Origin: a virus
Virus record (IMG/VR): IMGVR_UViG_3300035696_001556
Coordinates: 1-64,000 of that record
Length of the DNA: 64,000 nucleotides
Direction: 5' to 3' (one strand)
Part shown: one piece after another, positions 4,337-60,337 of the stretch
Layout: each line of letters opens with the position of its first letter
Position numbering within the stretch: the first letter of the stretch is position 1
Notes under the pieces: generated by a model
What the model was told of the DNA's origin: nothing
Seen by the model: the letters and a program-made list of their open reading frames with translations, nothing else
Databases searched by the model: none
Translations under genes and position numbers: made by a program

Positions 4337-4857
4337 TGAACCTCGTAATTTGTTGCGGCTTACAGAAGGCTTATTTGAATCCTAAGGGCTCTAGGTATCT
4401 TGGGGAAAAAGCGGACATTTTAGATATTAGGTTAAAGTCGTATTTTAAGTCTTTGAATTTACAGGAAAATGTAGTATATTTAGTACGAGAGATCCACCAG
4501 CCCGATGATAGCTTTTTCCTCAACAAAAAGTCAGGCTCACTCGTAGGGTCAGATGACATCGAAATACCAGAATTCTACAGAGCATACTCGAAACTCGTAT
4601 TTAACATCATGCGCTATAATGCGTTTTATCAGACCCCGTTGGATTCTGAGATCTATAAACTTAAACCAAGAACAGTTACAGTTATCGGGGTGGAGACACA
4701 CACAACGATATTATTTACGGCTGAAGAATTAAGAAACAGGGGATATAATGTAGTGGTTATTGAGCCACTCGTAACATCCAATGATGATTATCTACATAAC
4801 ATAGGGATAACCCTTTTGCATAACTTTTTAACTGTAAACATCCAACAAGCGGGGTAA
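4336..4857 (+). CDS. Isochorismatase/nicotinamidase-fold protein with degenerate catalytic triad
   Basis: Family pattern LQKAYL..G...REIHQPDD...G...RYNAFYQT.L...VTVIGVET...TA.E...RGYNV; TGATG coupling at 4334-4338. Confidence 0.7.
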   Translation: MNLVICCGLQKAYLNPKGSRYLGEKADILDIRLKSYFKSLNLQENVVYLVREIHQPDDSFFLNKKSGSLVGSDDIEIPEFYRAYSKLVFNIMRYNAFYQTPLDSEIYKLKPRTVTVIGVETHTTILFTAEELRNRGYNVVVIEPLVTSNDDYLHNIGITLLHNFLTVNIQQAG

Positions 4858-26569: not shown

Positions 26570-26597
26570 CTTACCCTCCTTCTACTCCCCTACCAAT

Positions 26598-26626: not shown

Positions 26627-26772
26627 GATAAATTTTTCATGATGGTTTATTTATACCTCGACGGTCAGTGTATCTGTTTTAGTTTCAATGAGTTATTGGA
26701 CTTGTAATAATCTAGTATTATAGTTTTATTATATAGAAACTACATAAATATAATAGAAAGGGCGCACACACC

Positions 26773-26919
26773 ATGAAGATGAAATCAATATCTTTTTCGG
26801 ACAAAGAGGTTAAACTTATCGAAGAAGAAGCAATAAAAGAAGAAAGATCTTTCACTGAAATAGTTCGGAAAATAATAGATAGATATTTTGAAGAAAAATC
26901 TAAACTAGAAAACTTATAA
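26773..26919 (+). CDS. Ribbon-helix-helix (CopG-like) repressor, 48 aa, not in the ORF track
   Basis: MKMKSISFSDKEVKLIEEEAIKEERSFTEIVRKIIDRYFEEKSKLENL*. Confidence 0.75.
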   Translation: MKMKSISFSDKEVKLIEEEAIKEERSFTEIVRKIIDRYFEEKSKLENL

Positions 26920-27202
26920 AACGTGTGCCTGGCGAGTTGCTAACTACCATTGCAAAGTGGTTTGAATCGTGAGATTCGACGTAAGAGTTGGTTAGAGGGC
27001 TTTTAAGAGGAAACTTTTAAATGCAGAAGTTTAAAGGAAAGTTAAAGTACACACCAGGGGATGCTCCACAAGTCCCTTGCTCTGTAAATCCTGTATTAAA
27101 CAGAGACCAAAGTCTCAGTGTACAGGGTAAAGTACGGACTTTAAACAACCTCGAAGTGGATCTACTCCAACATAGAGGAGGACAGGGCTCGAGAGTTCCT
27201 GT
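26920..27202 (+). ncRNA. IscB omegaRNA (HEARO-like): 5' guide ~26920-26938 plus scaffold
   Basis: Scaffold starts GCTAACTACC (cf. GTCAACTACC) and pairs with agttggt. It contains gatgctccacaagtcc, attaaacag...cagtgt, aacctcgaagtgga and the terminal hairpin acagggctcgagagttcctgt. Confidence 0.8.
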
Positions 27203-28406
27203 TATTATCTATGTACTAAATCAGAGGGGTCAACCTCTGATGCCTTGTTCGGCTCGAACAGCTAGGATTTTAGTCAAGAAAGGAGAAGCTAAAGTCGTCA
27301 AGACTAATCCGTTTTTTGTTATTCAATTGAAAAAAGCTACCGGAGAACAGATTCAAAAATGCTCTTTGGGAATTGATTCGGGTTACAAGTATGTAGGGTT
27401 TTCTGTTATTACGGATAAAAAAGAGATAGTATGTGGGGAACTTATTTTAGATGATAAAACATCTGAGAGATTAAGAGAACGAAGCATGTATAGAAGACAT
27501 CGTAGAAGGAGATTATGGTATCGTAAATCTAGGCGCAATAATAGAAAAGCGTCAAAGGTCAAAATTCGCGGATCCAATGTGAGAAAATTTAATACTCATA
27601 TTGATTTTATAAAAAGCATTAGAAAAATAATTTGCATAAATGTAGATAGTATTACAATAGAGACTGGCAGTTTTGATATTCAAAAAATAGAAAACCCGAA
27701 TATAACAAACTTACAATATCAACAAGGACCAATGTACGGATATAAAAATATGAGGAATTTTTTAATGGCAAGAGAATCTGGAAAATGCCAAATGTGCAAT
27801 AAAGAATTTAGTAGAGGAGATAAAGCCCACATTCATCACATAATACCTGTGTCTTCTGGTGGAACAGATAGAGAGAAAAATTTATCTTTATTACACGAAA
27901 GATGTCATGCCAGACTTCATAAAAAGAAATTGTTTAATGTTTTAAATAAGAACAATCAGTACAAAGAAGCAGGATTTATGAATACTGTTAGATTAAAATA
28001 TCAGAAAATTTTACCTGATTGTAGAATAACTTATGGATATGAGACTTCTGTTAAAAGAATTGAATTAAAATTAAAAAAAGCACACCATAATGATGCTTTC
28101 GTTATAGCGGGAGGAACCAATCAAAAAAGATCTAATCCCATAGTCTTAAAACAAAAACACAGAAATAATAGAATTCTTCAAGCCAACAATAGAAAAGGTT
28201 CTAAACCTTTAATTAGAAGATGTAGATATTCTATACAACCAGGAGATACTCTATTTGTCGAAAATAAGAAGTATTTGTCTAGAGGTTGTCATGGAAATGG
28301 TAAGATGGTTCGTTGTACAGACGGTAATAATTATTTAGATTTTTATTTTAAGAGAATAGAAAAAGTATTTCATGTCGGTTCTATATATCTAGATATGCCC
28401 CAATAA
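27021..28406 (+). CDS. iscB: IscB RNA-guided endonuclease (RuvC + HNH)
   Basis: PLMP motif, GIDSG, Arg-rich bridge helix RR.RRRRLWYRK, IET, HNH HIHHI...GGTD...N...CH, HHNDA. Confidence 0.95.
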   Translation: MQKFKGKLKYTPGDAPQVPCSVNPVLNRDQSLSVQGKVRTLNNLEVDLLQHRGGQGSRVPVIIYVLNQRGQPLMPCSARTARILVKKGEAKVVKTNPFFVIQLKKATGEQIQKCSLGIDSGYKYVGFSVITDKKEIVCGELILDDKTSERLRERSMYRRHRRRRLWYRKSRRNNRKASKVKIRGSNVRKFNTHIDFIKSIRKIICINVDSITIETGSFDIQKIENPNITNLQYQQGPMYGYKNMRNFLMARESGKCQMCNKEFSRGDKAHIHHIIPVSSGGTDREKNLSLLHERCHARLHKKKLFNVLNKNNQYKEAGFMNTVRLKYQKILPDCRITYGYETSVKRIELKLKKAHHNDAFVIAGGTNQKRSNPIVLKQKHRNNRILQANNRKGSKPLIRRCRYSIQPGDTLFVENKKYLSRGCHGNGKMVRCTDGNNYLDFYFKRIEKVFHVGSIYLDMPQ

Positions 28407-28435
28407 GATTGTCTTTAGTTCTACAGCTCTACAGT

Positions 28436-28453
28436 TAATACTCTTCTAATAAA
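28436..28453 (+). promoter_or_regulatory. 18-bp conserved intergenic motif (putative phage late promoter)
   Basis: taatactcttctaataaa; see findings. Confidence 0.55.
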
Positions 28454-28520
28454 GATTCATAACTGAATAGCCCCATCTAAGTATAGGTGTATAGGGTTGT
28501 TATTTGTATTGGAGGTTTTT

Positions 28521-28772
28521 ATGCCCCCTGGGGAGCTCGGGAATGAAGGCGGAGGAAGTGACGAAAGCCAGTTTGTTGGCTACTACGAGCACCGTTATAA
28601 GCCCGAACAAACCGCTATGGAAGATGACCGCTTTGTTCAGGAAAAGGAGGATTCTAAAAAAAGACTCACTCAACAGGAACGTTTGATTCGCAAATGGAAA
28701 AAGAAAATGTGTCAACCAGAACCAAAATCTTCAGGATTACCTGATGGTGGCCCCACGCCAGGAGTAAAATAA
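28521..28772 (+). CDS. hypothetical protein (apparent target gene of the IscB guide)
   Basis: ggagg RBS before the ATG at 28521; MPPGELGNEGGG. Confidence 0.7.
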   Translation: MPPGELGNEGGGSDESQFVGYYEHRYKPEQTAMEDDRFVQEKEDSKKRLTQQERLIRKWKKKMCQPEPKSSGLPDGGPTPGVK

Positions 28773-29104: not shown

Positions 29105-32100
29105 ATGCCAGATAATATTGCTGGAATCAATGCAGGAGCAGATGCTCCTAATCCAAAACCAAGGACTCGAGTAGTGAAAACTGCTTCAACCGCTTCAGAT
29201 ACGGCACACAGAATGGCAAGAGCAAAAAGAGCTGTAATAGTACAGCAAAACGGTCCCGTAGAGGATAAGCCCAAAGCTCAACCACTTACTAAAAAAGAAA
29301 TAGAAGCTAGGATGTACAAAAAGTACTCCACCACTAGCTTTGGATTTAATAGTAGGCAGGCATACAACGGAACAAGTAACATAGATGTAAGTGGAAGTTC
29401 ACAGGGTAACTTCTACTCTCCTCAGCTGTCTACAGACTTCCTGGAAAAACCCCAGAACCTCCGTGAAAGACGCGCATGGTACAGGACCTTCTACAACAGT
29501 AATGAATTCGTGGGACAAGCTGTAGATCTTCATTCAACATTACCCATATCCAAAATAAAACTTGATAAGCCAAAATCCAATAACCAAGATTTTGCTGATT
29601 ATGTTTACGATTTCTTTGTAGAAATGTGTAACGATATCAAGTTGACAAAAACACTTTTGGAAATAAGTCATGAATATACGATTATGGGTAATTGCATTCC
29701 GGAAAACTCAATTATAAGGTGTATAGATGAGAATAAGATTGCTAGAGAAGTATGTGAAGGGGACTACATCTTAACTAACAAAAACAGATTTCGTAAGGTA
29801 TTAAAAGCAGTAACAAGGGAAGCAAATAAACTTCTAGAGATAACGGTGTGCAAAACTTTTGAAAAAATAGAATGCACGCCGGAGCATCCTATAGAAGTGT
29901 TGAGAGATGGAAAGTTTAAATTTGTCCAAGCAAAAAATCTTACAGAGAATGACTATATAAGAATTGTTTGGCCAGAAGAAAAAAAGGACATACAATCTCT
30001 ATGTTATACAGACTTTGATAATCTACAAAAAAACGAAAACGGTTATCAGTATGATGTGACCATACCTCGTAAAAAGAGTAATTTGGCTCATAAAAATAGA
30101 TTGTCTTTTTTAGGTTGGGCTAAAAGCTTAAAAAAGCCTACAATAATAACTCGTGATAAGCTGTCGAAAAAATTAGATATGAGAAGAAAAGAACTAGATT
30201 CTATTGTTCTACAGTTAAGAAAAGAAGGTTTTGATTTTACAAAAAGATTAGGAGCTACAGGATACCAAAAAGGATCTCAAGTAGCGTGGTATCCTTTGGA
30301 CGGATGTAAGTGTGACCAGATGTATATAATAACACGTACGCATAAGGTTAGAGCTCCGCATAATATAGACATAGATAACGATTTCTGTTACTTAGTGGGG
30401 TATTGGTTAGGAGACGGTACTCTTGCTAGAGACAATTCTAGAATAACTTGGGGAAGGGGTTTGTGGCAGATAGGGTTTGGAAACGGTTCAGAAGGCCATA
30501 TCCCAAAAATAGAGTCCATAATAAAAGAAAAGTTAGGGGATAAATGTCTTAAAAAGTGGACTAGTAATGGTATAACTTATTTGAAAGTTAAAGGTAATCC
30601 AGCTTTTATCGAATGGTGGTCTGAGAATTTTGGTGAAACCTCTCACGGAAACATACCTAAGAAAATTCCACAATGGTTTGTCAATCTTCCTATAAGAAAA
30701 TTAGAGAACTTTTTGGCAGGGATTATTGACTCTGATGGTTGTGTGAGTAAAAACGAAGAAGGCAGTGTTCAAATAGCAATGTCTTCAAAACCTATTATGG
30801 ATATGGTTAAAGACATATCTTTGAAATGTGGAACAGTATTCAATTATAGAAAAGAATCCTCGAGATTAGTTAAAACTCCAAACGGTAAATATTCAATGTC
30901 AAAAGGTATGTACATGTTGTACACCTCAGATAAAGAATCGTGCCGGATATTTACAAAAAACACATTTAAAAAAATGTTACCAGATGCCATTTTCCCTACA
31001 AGTAATAGGTTTTTCAAGAGACTTGGTAAGAATCTGGCTTTTAAAATAAGAAGTATTAATGACCTTCCTGGCCAACAGGTTTACAACTTCGAAATAGAAG
31101 AAGATCATACTTATAGTGTTAACGGATTTAGCACGCATAATTGTTTTGTCTTTTGCGAAGATCACGATCCCTATAGTAAGCAAGATGAACAAGGTAAAGA
31201 GGTATTAAAGGAAAAAGGTAAAGCTAAAACAAAAGAGCTTTATGAGAAATTTAAGGTCATCGATAAGGATCCAAACTATCAAGGCTTCAGACAGCTAATA
31301 ATACTTCCACCAGATCAGGTTAGGGTAAAAAAAGTCCCGCTGTCCGATGATATCCTTGTCGAGTTCGTGCCGGATCCAGAAACTAAAAAGACTATCATGG
31401 GTATGGTGGAAGGCAGTCCACTCTCTTATGATTACAGAATTTCGGATATAGACAGACAAAAAATACAAGACAAGTTACCAGAAGTTTTGTTTGACAGATT
31501 GAAAGACGGCGGAGCTATCCCGCTTGATACCGATCCTTATAGCGGATCTCATGTGTACCATCTTGCTCGAAAGAAATCCCAATATGAGACCATGGGAGTT
31601 TCAATCCTTGAAAGATGCGTGAATACTCTTCTGTATCAGGATAAACTTCGTCAGGCTCAGACTTCCATAGCATCCAGGCACATGACGCCTATCAGGGTTA
31701 TATGGGCTGAGGGCATGAGTGATAATGATACCGATGTGCTCAGAGAACAAGTTGACTTGTCTCTTGTAGATCCCGACTTCTCTATTGTTTCAAACTTTGA
31801 AATTCACTGGGATGAAATGGGAGCCAACGGAAGGTTATTGGACCTTACATCCGAATTTGAACACATAGAGAACGCTTTATTTGCAGGGTTGGGTGTTACG
31901 AGAGAGATCCTTACCGGTGAGGGTACGTATTCTGGAAACAGAATAAATCTTGAAATCCTCAATACACAGTATATGCTTTTCCGTGATCAACTTCAGGATT
32001 TCGTAGAAAACAATCTTTTCAAGCCAGTAGCCAAGAAAAAGGGATTCGAGGAAGAGGATAAGTTTGGCCGCAAGAAACTTCTTTATCCACATCTAAGTTT

Positions 32101-32560
32101 TTCTCGTTTGGCTGTAAGGGATAACGATGCATTCTTCGACCAGGCCTTCAACATGTATAACAAAGGATCTCTTTCTAGTGACATCATTCTTGACTTGATG
32201 AATATTGACGCTAATTCGAATAAGAAGAAATTGGAAGCCGATCTGTTTACGGTCAATGACTCCGCTTTCAACCAATTCTTGCAGGCCTTATACAATGCCG
32301 TGGGACCTCTGATGGCTGAGAAATATGATTTGATTGAGAAACTCGGTGATTATCTAGACATACATCCTTTGCCTACGCCTCCTGGAGGTGAAGGTGGCGA
32401 AGCTGGCGGGGCAGCTGGAGCCGGAGGACTTCCAGGTATGGGAAGATTTTCGACCGGTGGGCTCAATAAGAGTCAAGTAGCGGTTTTGAACAGACTTATC
32501 AGTTCAGCTTTAAAGAACCCGCAGAAACTGGATAAGATAATCAAGTTTCTGAATGGCTAA
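29105..32560 (+). CDS. Portal protein containing an intein
   Basis: WYRTFY...FVGQAVDLHSTLP, EY..GN|CF, LPPDQV, H.ARKKSQYE.MGVSIL, AGLGV..EIL.GEGTYS; located in the head module. Confidence 0.8.
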   Translation: MPDNIAGINAGADAPNPKPRTRVVKTASTASDTAHRMARAKRAVIVQQNGPVEDKPKAQPLTKKEIEARMYKKYSTTSFGFNSRQAYNGTSNIDVSGSSQGNFYSPQLSTDFLEKPQNLRERRAWYRTFYNSNEFVGQAVDLHSTLPISKIKLDKPKSNNQDFADYVYDFFVEMCNDIKLTKTLLEISHEYTIMGNCIPENSIIRCIDENKIAREVCEGDYILTNKNRFRKVLKAVTREANKLLEITVCKTFEKIECTPEHPIEVLRDGKFKFVQAKNLTENDYIRIVWPEEKKDIQSLCYTDFDNLQKNENGYQYDVTIPRKKSNLAHKNRLSFLGWAKSLKKPTIITRDKLSKKLDMRRKELDSIVLQLRKEGFDFTKRLGATGYQKGSQVAWYPLDGCKCDQMYIITRTHKVRAPHNIDIDNDFCYLVGYWLGDGTLARDNSRITWGRGLWQIGFGNGSEGHIPKIESIIKEKLGDKCLKKWTSNGITYLKVKGNPAFIEWWSENFGETSHGNIPKKIPQWFVNLPIRKLENFLAGIIDSDGCVSKNEEGSVQIAMSSKPIMDMVKDISLKCGTVFNYRKESSRLVKTPNGKYSMSKGMYMLYTSDKESCRIFTKNTFKKMLPDAIFPTSNRFFKRLGKNLAFKIRSINDLPGQQVYNFEIEEDHTYSVNGFSTHNCFVFCEDHDPYSKQDEQGKEVLKEKGKAKTKELYEKFKVIDKDPNYQGFRQLIILPPDQVRVKKVPLSDDILVEFVPDPETKKTIMGMVEGSPLSYDYRISDIDRQKIQDKLPEVLFDRLKDGGAIPLDTDPYSGSHVYHLARKKSQYETMGVSILERCVNTLLYQDKLRQAQTSIASRHMTPIRVIWAEGMSDNDTDVLREQVDLSLVDPDFSIVSNFEIHWDEMGANGRLLDLTSEFEHIENALFAGLGVTREILTGEGTYSGNRINLEILNTQYMLFRDQLQDFVENNLFKPVAKKKGFEEEDKFGRKKLLYPHLSFSRLAVRDNDAFFDQAFNMYNKGSLSSDIILDLMNIDANSNKKKLEADLFTVNDSAFNQFLQALYNAVGPLMAEKYDLIEKLGDYLDIHPLPTPPGGEGGEAGGAAGAGGLPGMGRFSTGGLNKSQVAVLNRLISSALKNPQKLDKIIKFLNG
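29693..31141 (+). mobile_element. Intein (483 aa) with LAGLIDADG endonuclease in the portal
   Basis: N-term CIPENS, TPEHP, VGYWLGDG, LAGIIDSDG, C-term VYNFEIEEDHTYSVNGFSTHN|C. Confidence 0.92.
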
Positions 32561-58435: not shown

Positions 58436-58948
58436 ATGTTACGCGTATCCGCTATAGAGGCCGCTAAGTTAGTTGTAGCGGCTTCATTTGTTTTAAAAGA
58501 CGATGTCAAGTTCGAAGGATTCGATGATGTCGGTGAGACTGAATTGTCTCATACCGTTAATGTTCGCAAAAACGGTGAGATGTCCGAGTACGAACAAGAA
58601 TTCAATCAACTGGATATATGGGCTGATCTGTCTTTGGGATTTACCGGAGAACCGCCAAACAGTTATAGAGTGTTTAATTCCATGATAGTTGACTGGGTCG
58701 ATGAACATGAAGATGAACTTAAAAAAATAATAAATCCAAAGCTTATACCATTTTTGAAAGAAAAATTTCCAGATTTGGATGTGTCGGATCTTAAAGAAGA
58801 TTTTGATGATTATATTTTTGAAGACCAGGTAGATTATGTTGCGGGTATTGATGAAGAGGATGGAAGGCTTCATTTTTGTATTGAGATGGTATTAGACATT
58901 GAGAATGAGGATGATGATAAAAATTTTGATAAAAAAGAGGAATCATAA
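58436..58948 (+). CDS. Acidic hypothetical protein whose last ~42 codons are a recoded replacement tail
   Basis: The C terminus is homologous to the orphan fragment at 60197-60331. Confidence 0.8.
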   Translation: MLRVSAIEAAKLVVAASFVLKDDVKFEGFDDVGETELSHTVNVRKNGEMSEYEQEFNQLDIWADLSLGFTGEPPNSYRVFNSMIVDWVDEHEDELKKIINPKLIPFLKEKFPDLDVSDLKEDFDDYIFEDQVDYVAGIDEEDGRLHFCIEMVLDIENEDDDKNFDKKEES

Positions 58949-58962
58949 AAATAATTAATATT

Positions 58963-60183
58963 ATGATAAATCGAGGATATAGAGTAGAAATAAAACCCAA
59001 CAACAAACAAAAGACTTTATTAAATAAGGCTTTTGGCGTGGCTCGCTTTGCCTATAATTGGGGCTTAGCGAGGCGTATAGAACTCTACAAAAATGAAAAG
59101 AAATCTTTGTCTGCTATAGATCAACACAAAGAATTGTGTATTCTTAAAAAAGAACAATTTCCTTGGATGTATGAAGTTTCAAAATGCGTTCCCCAAGAGG
59201 CTTTAATAGACTTAGAGGATGCATATAATAAGTTTTATAAATCTAATAAAAATTTTAGGTATCCTAAATTCAAAACCAAACACAAATCAAAAGATTCTTT
59301 TAGAGTATCTTCTGGAAATTTTTATATAACTGAATCTTCTATAAAGATACCAAAAATAGGACAAATAAAACTAAAAGAAAAGAGATATATACCAACAGCA
59401 GGTATAAAGTATAACTCAATCACAGTATCTAAAGACGCAAATAAATATTTTGTGTCCGTCCAGTGTGAAGTAGAAACCCCAGGTGTTACTGAGAAAAAAG
59501 AAACAGTTCTGGGTATTGATTTGGGGATAAAAACTTTACTTGTTTGCTCAAACGGTGAAATTTTTGATAACCCCAAAACAACCTATAAATATGAGAAAAA
59601 ACTGGCTCATGCCCAGAAAAACTTCAGTAGAACTAAAAAAGGATCTAAAAACAGAACCAAAGCCAATTTGAAAGTTCAAAAAATATACAGAAAAATTAAA
59701 AATAGTCGCATGAATAATCTTCACAGAGCTACCAGTGCCGTGGTGAAAACCAAGCCAAGATACATAGTTCTTGAAGATTTAAATGTAAAGGGTATGACTA
59801 AGAATCATCATTTAGCTAAAGCTGTTTCAGATGGATCTTTTGGGGAAATCTATAGGCAATTTAAATATAAAGCTTTATGGTATGGTTCTGAGATCATTGA
59901 CGCAGATAGATTCTATCCTAGTTCCAAATTATGTAGAAAGTGTGGACAGATTAAGGATGATTTAACCCTAGAGGATAGAGTCTATACCTGTGAGTGTGGC
60001 CATACCGAAGACAGAGATTTAAATGCGTCTATTAATTTAGAGGAATATGGTTTGAATACCCTCAGTTCGAGGGGAATTAAAGCCTGTGGAGAAAGTGTAA
60101 GACTTTTAGATGCTATTGATCTAGAAGCAGTTTCTACGAACCAGGAAGAAAACAATACAACTAATTTAGTTAGTTGTATATAA
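58963..60183 (+). CDS. tnpB: TnpB RNA-guided endonuclease (IS607-like)
   Basis: AFGVARFAYNWGL; RuvC motifs GIDLG, LEDLN, DRDLNAS; CRKC/CECG. Confidence 0.95.
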   Translation: MINRGYRVEIKPNNKQKTLLNKAFGVARFAYNWGLARRIELYKNEKKSLSAIDQHKELCILKKEQFPWMYEVSKCVPQEALIDLEDAYNKFYKSNKNFRYPKFKTKHKSKDSFRVSSGNFYITESSIKIPKIGQIKLKEKRYIPTAGIKYNSITVSKDANKYFVSVQCEVETPGVTEKKETVLGIDLGIKTLLVCSNGEIFDNPKTTYKYEKKLAHAQKNFSRTKKGSKNRTKANLKVQKIYRKIKNSRMNNLHRATSAVVKTKPRYIVLEDLNVKGMTKNHHLAKAVSDGSFGEIYRQFKYKALWYGSEIIDADRFYPSSKLCRKCGQIKDDLTLEDRVYTCECGHTEDRDLNASINLEEYGLNTLSSRGIKACGESVRLLDAIDLEAVSTNQEENNTTNLVSCI

Positions 60184-60217
60184 GTTTTTCAGAACGGAGG
60201 ACCAGGTAGATTATATG
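60055..60217 (+). ncRNA. Putative omegaRNA (scaffold ending ...gtttttcagaacgg at 60197; guide 60198-60217)
   Basis: IS607-like right-end pattern (gcctgtggaga...caggaa...gtttt.cagaacgg) overlapping the tnpB 3' end; 5' boundary approximate. Confidence 0.7.
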
Positions 60218-60331
60218 CCTGGCATTGATGACGAGGATAATCGACTTCGTTTCTCTATAGAGTTGGTGTTAGATATCGAGGACGATGAAGTAGCACCAGG
60301 GGATAAAGAAGAGCCAAAAACTAAGGAGTAA
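60197..60331 (+). pseudogene. Displaced original 3' end of the 58436 gene
   Basis: Translates EDQVDYMPGIDDEDNRLRFSIELVLDIEDDEVAPGDKEEPKTKE*; 21 of the first 28 aa are identical to the tail starting at 58820. Confidence 0.88.
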
Positions 60332-60337
60332 AATACA

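Follow-up and report, generated by a model that had tools for sequence, protein, structure and literature searches.

Organization of the IscB locus

We analyzed an IscB nuclease locus in a virus from peat metagenomes. The window, i.e., the whole stretch of DNA under analysis, is the first 64 kb (64,000 nucleotides) of the 173,494-bp IMG/VR record IMGVR_UViG_3300035696_001556 (39% GC). CheckV estimated the completeness of the record at 37%, and it is therefore a fragment of a huge phage. The locus carries, in this order and on the same strand, a short gene for a CopG-type ribbon–helix–helix (RHH) protein, a 19-nt spacer with the presumed guide, an omegaRNA scaffold of the HEARO type, the iscB gene, a late-promoter-type motif, and a small conserved gene (gene 28521, hereafter the target gene) located two genes 5′ of the portal gene. 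A first description made from the letters of the DNA alone (hereafter the sequence-only reading) had given the same anatomy, and every feature that it named was found in its place (Table 1).

The iscB product was compared with solved IscB proteins. Its Pfam PF14239 match covers the full profile (1–174), the RuvC motifs GIDSG, IETGSFD, and HHNDAF align to the solved IscB chain 11hr, and the HNH motif HIHHIIP aligns to HYHHVVP of solved IscB with the catalytic His kept; the OgeuIscB structures 7xht and 7utn also match the phage protein. By these alignments, the catalytic residues of both nuclease domains are intact. More than 1000 IscB homologues were found. The reading frame opens at ATG 27021, while the 416-aa cluster entry of the collection corresponds by arithmetic to a start at GTG 27156. 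The omegaRNA scaffold overlaps the 5′ part of the iscB reading frame, and its 5′ boundary agrees with that of 13 related scaffolds. The omegaRNA and IscB occur as a single copy in the 173-kb record.

The hallmarks of IS200/IS605 (ISC) elements, i.e., TnpA, subterminal hairpin ends, and several copies, were not found in the record. In agreement with the sequence-only reading, which had noted the lack of tnpA and of an insertion sequence (IS) hairpin after iscB, no tnpA occurs in the 173-kb record and no local inverted repeat or IS-type hairpin occurs in the 29 nt 3′ of iscB. A candidate 20-nt direct repeat at 26593/28400, 75% identical, was judged too weak in AT-rich DNA.

Origin of the guide

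Relatives were fetched via the N-terminus of the portal protein (33 viral and 80 metagenomic loci), and about 110 portal-region relatives were compared at the position of the IscB cassette. None of them has IscB there. The region had no blastn match among GenBank phages, and neither gene 28521 nor IscB, scanned as a single protein, returned relatives from IMG/VR; the loci were found with the portal N-terminus and the IscB alignment.

The guide was taken to be 16 nt long, a length assumed from solved IscB systems. Its scaffold-proximal end, GTG CCT GGC GAG TT (26925–26938), reads M/V-P-G-E-L in frame. Within it, CCTGGCGAGTT (26928–26938) is identical to CCTGGGGAGCT (28527–28537) at the start of the resident target gene at 9 of 11 positions, and neither mismatch changes the amino acid in frame (GGC/GGG, Gly; TTN/CTC, Leu). 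Elsewhere in the genome there are 17 further 9/11 matches, and the guide’s last 12 nt find an equally good match in 7% of random 400-nt windows. The 9/11 match by itself is not significant.

The target gene was then compared across about 64 distinct alleles from IscB-free relatives. All of them have a start codon followed by CCN GGN GAN NT and read MPGEL or MPGDL, with a few Ile variants (one MPGEI) and with a single Pro codon throughout; natural GTG and TTG starts occur as well (L187, L181). The stricter pattern [AGT]TG CCN GGN GAR YT occurs once in the record (both strands, 347 kb), at 26925, and this sole occurrence ends exactly at the junction of guide and scaffold. The same pattern has no match in 1.55 Mb (both strands) of other IscB loci. 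Because the in-frame family pattern is unique, ends at the junction, and is shared as a gene start by the ~64 alleles, the in-frame agreement goes far beyond chance, and the guide is a real copy of the head that the target gene has in IscB-free phages.

The best-matching allele is that of L128, one of the two closest relatives. It begins ATG CCT GGC GAA TT and then reads AGGTAATGAAG / AGGTAATGAA, with 10/11 and 12/14 identities to the guide; one mismatch lies three bases from the side of the target-adjacent motif (TAM) and two are distal. When the whole left flank is aligned locally to L128, the best alignment is made up of the guide stretch together with ACGTG just upstream. An 18-nt guide scan gave no match in IMG/VR. 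The same scan of GTDB genomes (596 Gb) gave four unrelated bacterial matches, which were without extended identity and within chance expectation. An exact scan of IMG/VR with ATGCCTGGCGAGTTNGG gave 15 matches, most of them inside unrelated genes and none in a portal-type context among those checked. One of the ATGCCTGGCGAGTTNGG matches, in L044, reads MPGELGQG...

The sequence-only reading had taken the guide for a relic of the 5′ end that the downstream gene has in phages lacking IscB. This view is borne out by the ~64 alleles, which fit the family start, and by the 10/11 match of L128. It had further asked whether such homologues begin with the guide itself, which they do as far as the family start pattern goes and not as an exact guide match. 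Neither of the two findings that it had named as refuting its claim was made: no relative carries the resident CCTGGGGAGCT, and the guide has no longer perfect match elsewhere, with none in IMG/VR and the four in GTDB at chance level.

The sequence that follows the target in naive alleles is N GGN RAY GAR. For TAM inference, the two naive sites (AGGTAATG here and ATATGCCA for L159) were compared and showed no clear common motif. The TAM of OgeuIscB is NWRRNA, which neither naive site fits.

The resident gene head

The head of the working target gene differs from the family start by an extra CCC codon (MPPGEL), which was found only in the resident allele among the ~64 and which the sequence-only reading had not mentioned. 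The codons of the resident head are rare in this phage (CCC 9%, GGG 12%, CTC 8%), and the first 50 nt of the gene have a GC content of 62%, compared with 43% in the rest of the gene. Against the 16-nt guide, the resident head matches at 9 of 16 positions, with mismatches at positions 2, 6, and 12–16 counted from the TAM side, the last five being distal. This pattern would be consistent with immunity of the resident head to cutting. The start of the gene had been described in the sequence-only reading as synonymously recoded; the mismatches are indeed synonymous, but the two near-TAM substitutions are within natural allelic variation, since L130 has CCT GGG GAA CTC, and “recoding” is too strong a word. 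Among the alleles compared, the extra Pro codon is the distinctive feature of the resident head. The phage holds two heads of one gene, a 14–18-nt relic as guide and a working, mismatched head.

Table 1 Features of the IscB locus (window coordinates).
Feature	Position	Strand	Remarks
Late-promoter-like motif TAATAATCTAGTATTATAG	26705–26723	+	About 50 nt 5′ of the RHH start; one base off the genome-wide motif TAATACTCT
RHH (CopG-type) gene, 48 aa	26773–26919	+	Pfam RHH_1, E 8.7e-5
Spacer, 19 nt, AACGTGTGCCTGGCGAGTT	26920–26938	+	Read from sequence
Presumed 16-nt omegaRNA guide	26923–26938	+	Directly 5′ of the scaffold
omegaRNA scaffold (HEARO, RF02033), full length	26939–27165	+	95.4 bits vs gathering score 83, E 1.7e-19, model positions 1–211
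iscB	27021–28406	+	Pfam RRXRR PF14239, 2.9e-44; HNH PF01844, 1.4e-13
Spacer after iscB, 29 nt, with tandem TCTACAG-C-TCTACAG	28407–28435	+	Right edge of the cassette placed here, from where the family promoter motif begins
Late-promoter-type motif TAATACTCTTCTAATAAAG	28436–28454	+	85 nt 5′ of the gene start
Shine–Dalgarno GGAGG of the resident gene	28511–28515	+	Read from sequence
Resident (spare) gene head, ATG CCC CCT GGG GAG CTC (MPPGEL)	28521–28538	+	Extra Pro codon
Target gene, small conserved protein, 83 aa	28521–28772	+	Homologues in L001 and others; two genes 5′ of the portal gene

Flanking genes and promoters

An RHH_1 open reading frame (ORF) is located directly 5′ of the MPGEL gene in at least 10 IscB-free relatives (L005, L009, L013, L138, L140, L143, L144, L146, L154, L163, L167). 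These neighbors were found by listing the ORFs that end just 5′ of the family gene, and tblastn missed them. The RHH proteins of the relatives have 54–64 aa, compared with 48 aa here, and align without gaps, that of the window being shorter. In the relatives, the RHH stop codon and the late-promoter motif overlap, at a distance of about 50 nt from the ATG, whereas here a mere 5 nt separate the RHH gene from the relic head, and they hold neither a promoter nor a Shine–Dalgarno (SD) sequence. Because RHH_1 adjoins this gene in relatives without IscB, the RHH gene is the native left neighbor in shortened form and not cassette cargo, and the suggestion of an RHH repressor attached to the cassette had to be given up. 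For the same reason, the left flank of the scaffold is native DNA (RHH, then gene head), as expected of an IscB element that uses adjoining DNA as guide. A paralogue of the RHH gene, 46% identical, occurs beyond the window at genome position 76817, directly 5′ of an actin/ParM-like gene and behind the same TAATACTCTATTAATA motif (76817–78026 for the whole stretch); the two genes may form a ParR/ParM-type pair.

The motif at 28436–28454 belongs to a promoter-like family, TAATACTCTnnTAATA, with about 10 intergenic instances in this genome (window 14327, 28436, 38086, 43667, 56720, and 57210; genome 76770 and 134080, among others). Its members are located 50–90 nt before gene starts and are conserved in related phages too; TAATACTCTnnTAATA is a candidate late promoter of the phage family. 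Perfect 18-nt matches to the 28436–28454 motif stand before other late genes of relatives, and the relatives have its counterpart at the RHH stop. By this comparison, iscB is followed by the family’s ordinary late-type promoter motif. The motif at 26705–26723 likewise resembles the one overlapping the RHH stop codon in relatives, and it is likely the promoter of an RHH–omegaRNA–iscB transcript; nothing resembling a terminator was found between RHH and omegaRNA. Local alignment of the flanks with the L001 and L128 intergenic regions was not significant by shuffling, the sequences having diverged too far, and the cassette edges given here are therefore approximate. The promoter, the untranslated region, and the head that follow iscB may have come with the cassette or through recombination with a relative, or may belong to a native gene that was never touched.

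Downstream of iscB, the 83-aa gene 28521 is followed by the 106-aa gene 28774 and then by the portal gene, which appears to bear an intein. Pfam and PHROGs gave no function for gene 28521 or gene 28774. The portal gene (29105–32560) encodes 1151 aa, compared with 643–665 aa in relatives (L001, L159), and the extra part opens with Cys and closes with ...HNC. This segment is probably an intein and, if so, a second selfish element no more than 1 kb from the IscB cassette.

Parallel loci

Only two of the portal-region relatives, both from metagenomes, have IscB nearby, at the next gene junction (L159:2088–3576; L162 at the same coordinates). In these, an omegaRNA and an IscB with 60% identity lie between the MPGEL gene and the next gene. 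The corresponding empty sites (L161:726–752 and L156:3547–3573) have flanks 87–93% identical to those of L159/L162. In L159/L162, the old SD and stop codon (CCAGGAGGTTTAAAT) now adjoin the scaffold as guide, 11 nt with the old start have been replaced, and the cassette end brings a new SD, AAAGGA, together with a start codon displaced by one codon, so that MPDLNN has become MELNN. In the window, the 106-aa gene (28774) and the portal gene (29105) both begin ATG CCA GAT (MPD). In L159-type phages, the gene targeted at its start region natively opens with MPD as well (L161:750), and conserved gene starts may be preferred landing sites of IscB.

The window itself contains a TnpB gene (58963–60183; cassette 58436–60337), which is flanked by two diverged copies of a gene tail. 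These are the end of a 170-aa gene stopping at 58948 and a relic at about 60196–60330, with 57% identity over 44 aa (E 3.5e-14). The sequence-only reading had called the IscB locus the mirror image of this cassette, and the duplicated, diverged gene tails on either side of TnpB bear this out. The TnpB cassette follows the same spare-end logic in the opposite polarity.

In 30 other phage IscB loci, the cassettes are tightly packed between genes and have flank-type guides. In several phage IscB loci (L054, L086, L052, and L066, at ~4730–4780 in each), the upstream gene reads through the guide and stops in the first scaffold bases; the cassettes are therefore located at gene 3′ ends, with the scaffold giving the stop codon. 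In L053 (4711–4735), the 15 nt before the scaffold open with GTCAAC, like the scaffold start, and the Rfam RNA start lies 15 nt too early; this stretch may be a remnant of an older junction. Only two peat metagenome contig sets, both low-depth, contained the stretch. In one of these runs (X2), the loose end at window position 26958 led to a contig with a different omegaRNA 5′ part and guide (...AAATGTTTGA before GTCAATTGCC), which therefore indicates a second IscB element in the same community.

Proposed mechanism

We consider it rather probable that the locus is a transposase-less, RNA-guided cassette for homing or for cutting competitors, equipped with a spare, mismatched gene head. Its placement near the portal gene of a huge phage, where it would occupy the 5′ end of a late gene (MPGEL) that is small and conserved, is in our judgment also probable. 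The layout resembles that of intronless homing: a free-standing nuclease lies between conserved genes and is absent from the same place in relatives, and at the sequence level its target is in a nearby conserved gene of which the phage’s own allele is different.

Under this proposal, an IscB element would have entered the gene head in an ancestor, and the native head, severed against the scaffold, would have become the guide. A second, diverged head, which has a late-type promoter and an SD of its own, would have preserved or restored the gene, and any sequence left of the relic that could have made up a direct repeat with the right-hand copy would have been lost later. Late in infection, a transcript of RHH, guide, omegaRNA, and iscB would yield the IscB ribonucleoprotein. 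In a mixed infection, this particle would cut the start of the same gene in relatives with (A/G)TG CCT GGC GAG TT followed by a TAM in N GGN RAY GAR. The guide copy in the phage’s own genome would be spared, as it is followed by the scaffold and not by a TAM, and the working copy would be spared by the extra codon and the two TAM-proximal mismatches. A cut rival would drop out or be mended with the IscB-bearing genome as template; in the second case it would receive the mismatched head and, if resection went further, the cassette too.

Alternative explanations

Several points weigh against the homing or competitor-cutting proposal. The relic comprises only 14–18 nt, is joined to a shortened RHH gene, and has no promoter, SD, or ATG, an arrangement that takes one or more additional rearrangements to explain. 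The promoter and untranslated region (UTR) after iscB look like the family’s native promoter, and the gene may therefore be untouched, with the cassette upstream of it and not within it. Many natural alleles differ from the guide at 2–4 of 11 positions; apart from the extra codon, the two near-TAM mismatches of the resident head do not go beyond this, and “purpose-built immunity” would be too strong a term for it. None of the ~64 alleles of the relatives matches the guide perfectly, L128 being the best. The Y1 HUH transposase TnpA (PF01797) gave no match in the 173-kb record, which is an estimated 37% of the genome, and a transposase elsewhere in it is possible. No guide match above background was found downstream of iscB in the 30 other phage IscB loci. 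We also list here that the two peat runs contained no joint skipping the cassette and no cassette-free sibling, although at their low depth this is no evidence either way.

The main rival, which we regard as rather unlikely, takes the locus to be the scar of an old IscB insertion. The gene would have been rescued by recombination with a relative, and the element would remain as a selfish or decaying passenger, its guide without a cleavable partner today. Such a history would account for a guide derived from flanking DNA, as in any IS200/IS605-type IscB element, for the lack of a perfect target in the ~64 alleles, in IMG/VR, and in the peat runs, for a relic stripped of promoter, SD, and ATG, and for near-TAM substitutions of the kind seen naturally in L130. 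It accounts less well for an IscB and an omegaRNA that are fully intact in an element without a transposase to move it. All sequence further left has been lost, yet the 14 nt at the scaffold still agree with the family start at each constrained position, the resident head has a unique extra codon, and TnpB of this genome and IscB of related phages show the same logic again; these findings also speak against a mere scar. A regulatory use similar to that of TldR proteins is very improbable. TldR proteins are nuclease-dead TnpB-derived RNA-guided repressors that have lost catalysis (PMC10705468). In a TldR-like role, the guide would send IscB late to the phage’s own partly matching head, in mRNA or DNA, for binding without cutting. 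The guide does resemble the resident translation start region (9/11), and the RHH gene and the cassette are placed under a common late-type promoter, but both nuclease domains have retained their catalytic residues, only 9 of the 16 guide positions match the resident site, with mismatches beside the TAM side, and the RHH gene is a native neighbor that is present also without IscB. Finally, 9/11 matches are common in this genome, and the spacer might be unrelated flanking DNA that resembles a gene start by chance. We give this idea practically no credence: the in-frame pattern is unique in 347 kb, ends at the scaffold junction, and is absent from 1.55 Mb of other IscB loci, and the left neighbor is the gene’s native upstream partner.

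If the locus is a homing or competitor-cutting cassette, it could belong to a wider class. [quoted passage not shown] It is conceivable, and similarly uncertain, that this phage holds one such cassette of each polarity and the related phage a third.

Comparison with known systems

IscB, omegaRNA, and OMEGA homing after excision are already known (bioRxiv 10.1101/2023.03.14.532601; PMC13565253), and OMEGA nucleases are understood as transposon helpers that re-copy the element into the site it has just left. According to a 2026 review, copying into homologous DNA of a co-infecting phage (“non-restorative” homing) is theoretical, its only support being an experiment with plasmid populations (PMC13565253). 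In the literature searched, we found no description of a transposase-less phage IscB with the severed head of a conserved gene as guide and a spare head. The present locus provides a concrete natural case, with no transposase in the record, a guide traced to a family-wide gene start, a mismatched spare head, and a mirror counterpart at TnpB. If cutting and biased inheritance are true of it, RNA-guided homing would be a force in phage–phage competition and mosaicism, and the persistence of intact IscB and TnpB genes in viruses would be explained.

The phage cassette resembles the IscB–omegaRNA (OMEGA) systems of the IS200/IS605/ISC type, such as OgeuIscB (PDB 7xht, 7utn) and GstIscB of G. stearothermophilus, in its architecture, in intact RuvC and HNH domains, in a HEARO-type omegaRNA overlapping the 5′ end of the gene, and in a guide located 5′ of the scaffold and made of insertion-flanking DNA. 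The expected action, in which an uninterrupted site is cut and the element is copied in by recombination, is also alike. The cassette differs in having no TnpA in the record, no hairpin ends, and a single copy, and it sits in a late operon. Furthermore, the interrupted gene stays complete here through a second, diverged head that has a promoter of its own, so that discrimination between self and target would rest on the insertion together with sequence differences. The rival would be a co-infecting phage and not a sister chromosome after excision.

The free-standing homing endonucleases SegF, SegB, SegG, and MobE of phage T4 act by intronless homing, or localized marker exclusion (PMC13565253, sections 3.2 and 6.1). 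As with these, the nuclease gene is wedged between conserved genes, the target is in the adjacent conserved gene of relatives, and the phage’s own allele would be protected by sequence differences; co-conversion of the nuclease gene and the resistant allele, or killing of the competitor, would be expected in both. In contrast to the T4 enzymes, recognition here would depend on a 16-nt RNA guide and a TAM rather than on protein, and the element itself carries the target sequence, in the form of a gene-head relic. TldR shares with the cassette a fixed guide aimed at a specific gene beside which an alternative allele is encoded, and is set apart from it by the loss of catalysis, since both nuclease centers are intact here.

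A further parallel is the TnpB cassette of the same phage. Both consist of a transposase-less OMEGA nuclease in a gene, with the severed gene end at the guide-reading site and a diverged duplicate end that keeps the gene whole. The TnpB guide is 3′ and the gene tail is duplicated, whereas the polarity of IscB is the opposite, and the TnpB cassette keeps a whole 44-codon relic tail, compared with only 14–18 nt of head at IscB. Synthetic cleave-and-rescue (ClvR) drives aim an RNA-guided nuclease at a needed gene and are linked to a recoded, uncuttable copy of the targeted part. The cassette would share this plan, but it is a natural viral element, its rescue is confined to the gene head, and its behavior as a drive is hypothetical; if that behavior is true, the locus would offer natural design rules for compact cleave-and-rescue, namely which mismatches protect and what length of gene end to duplicate.

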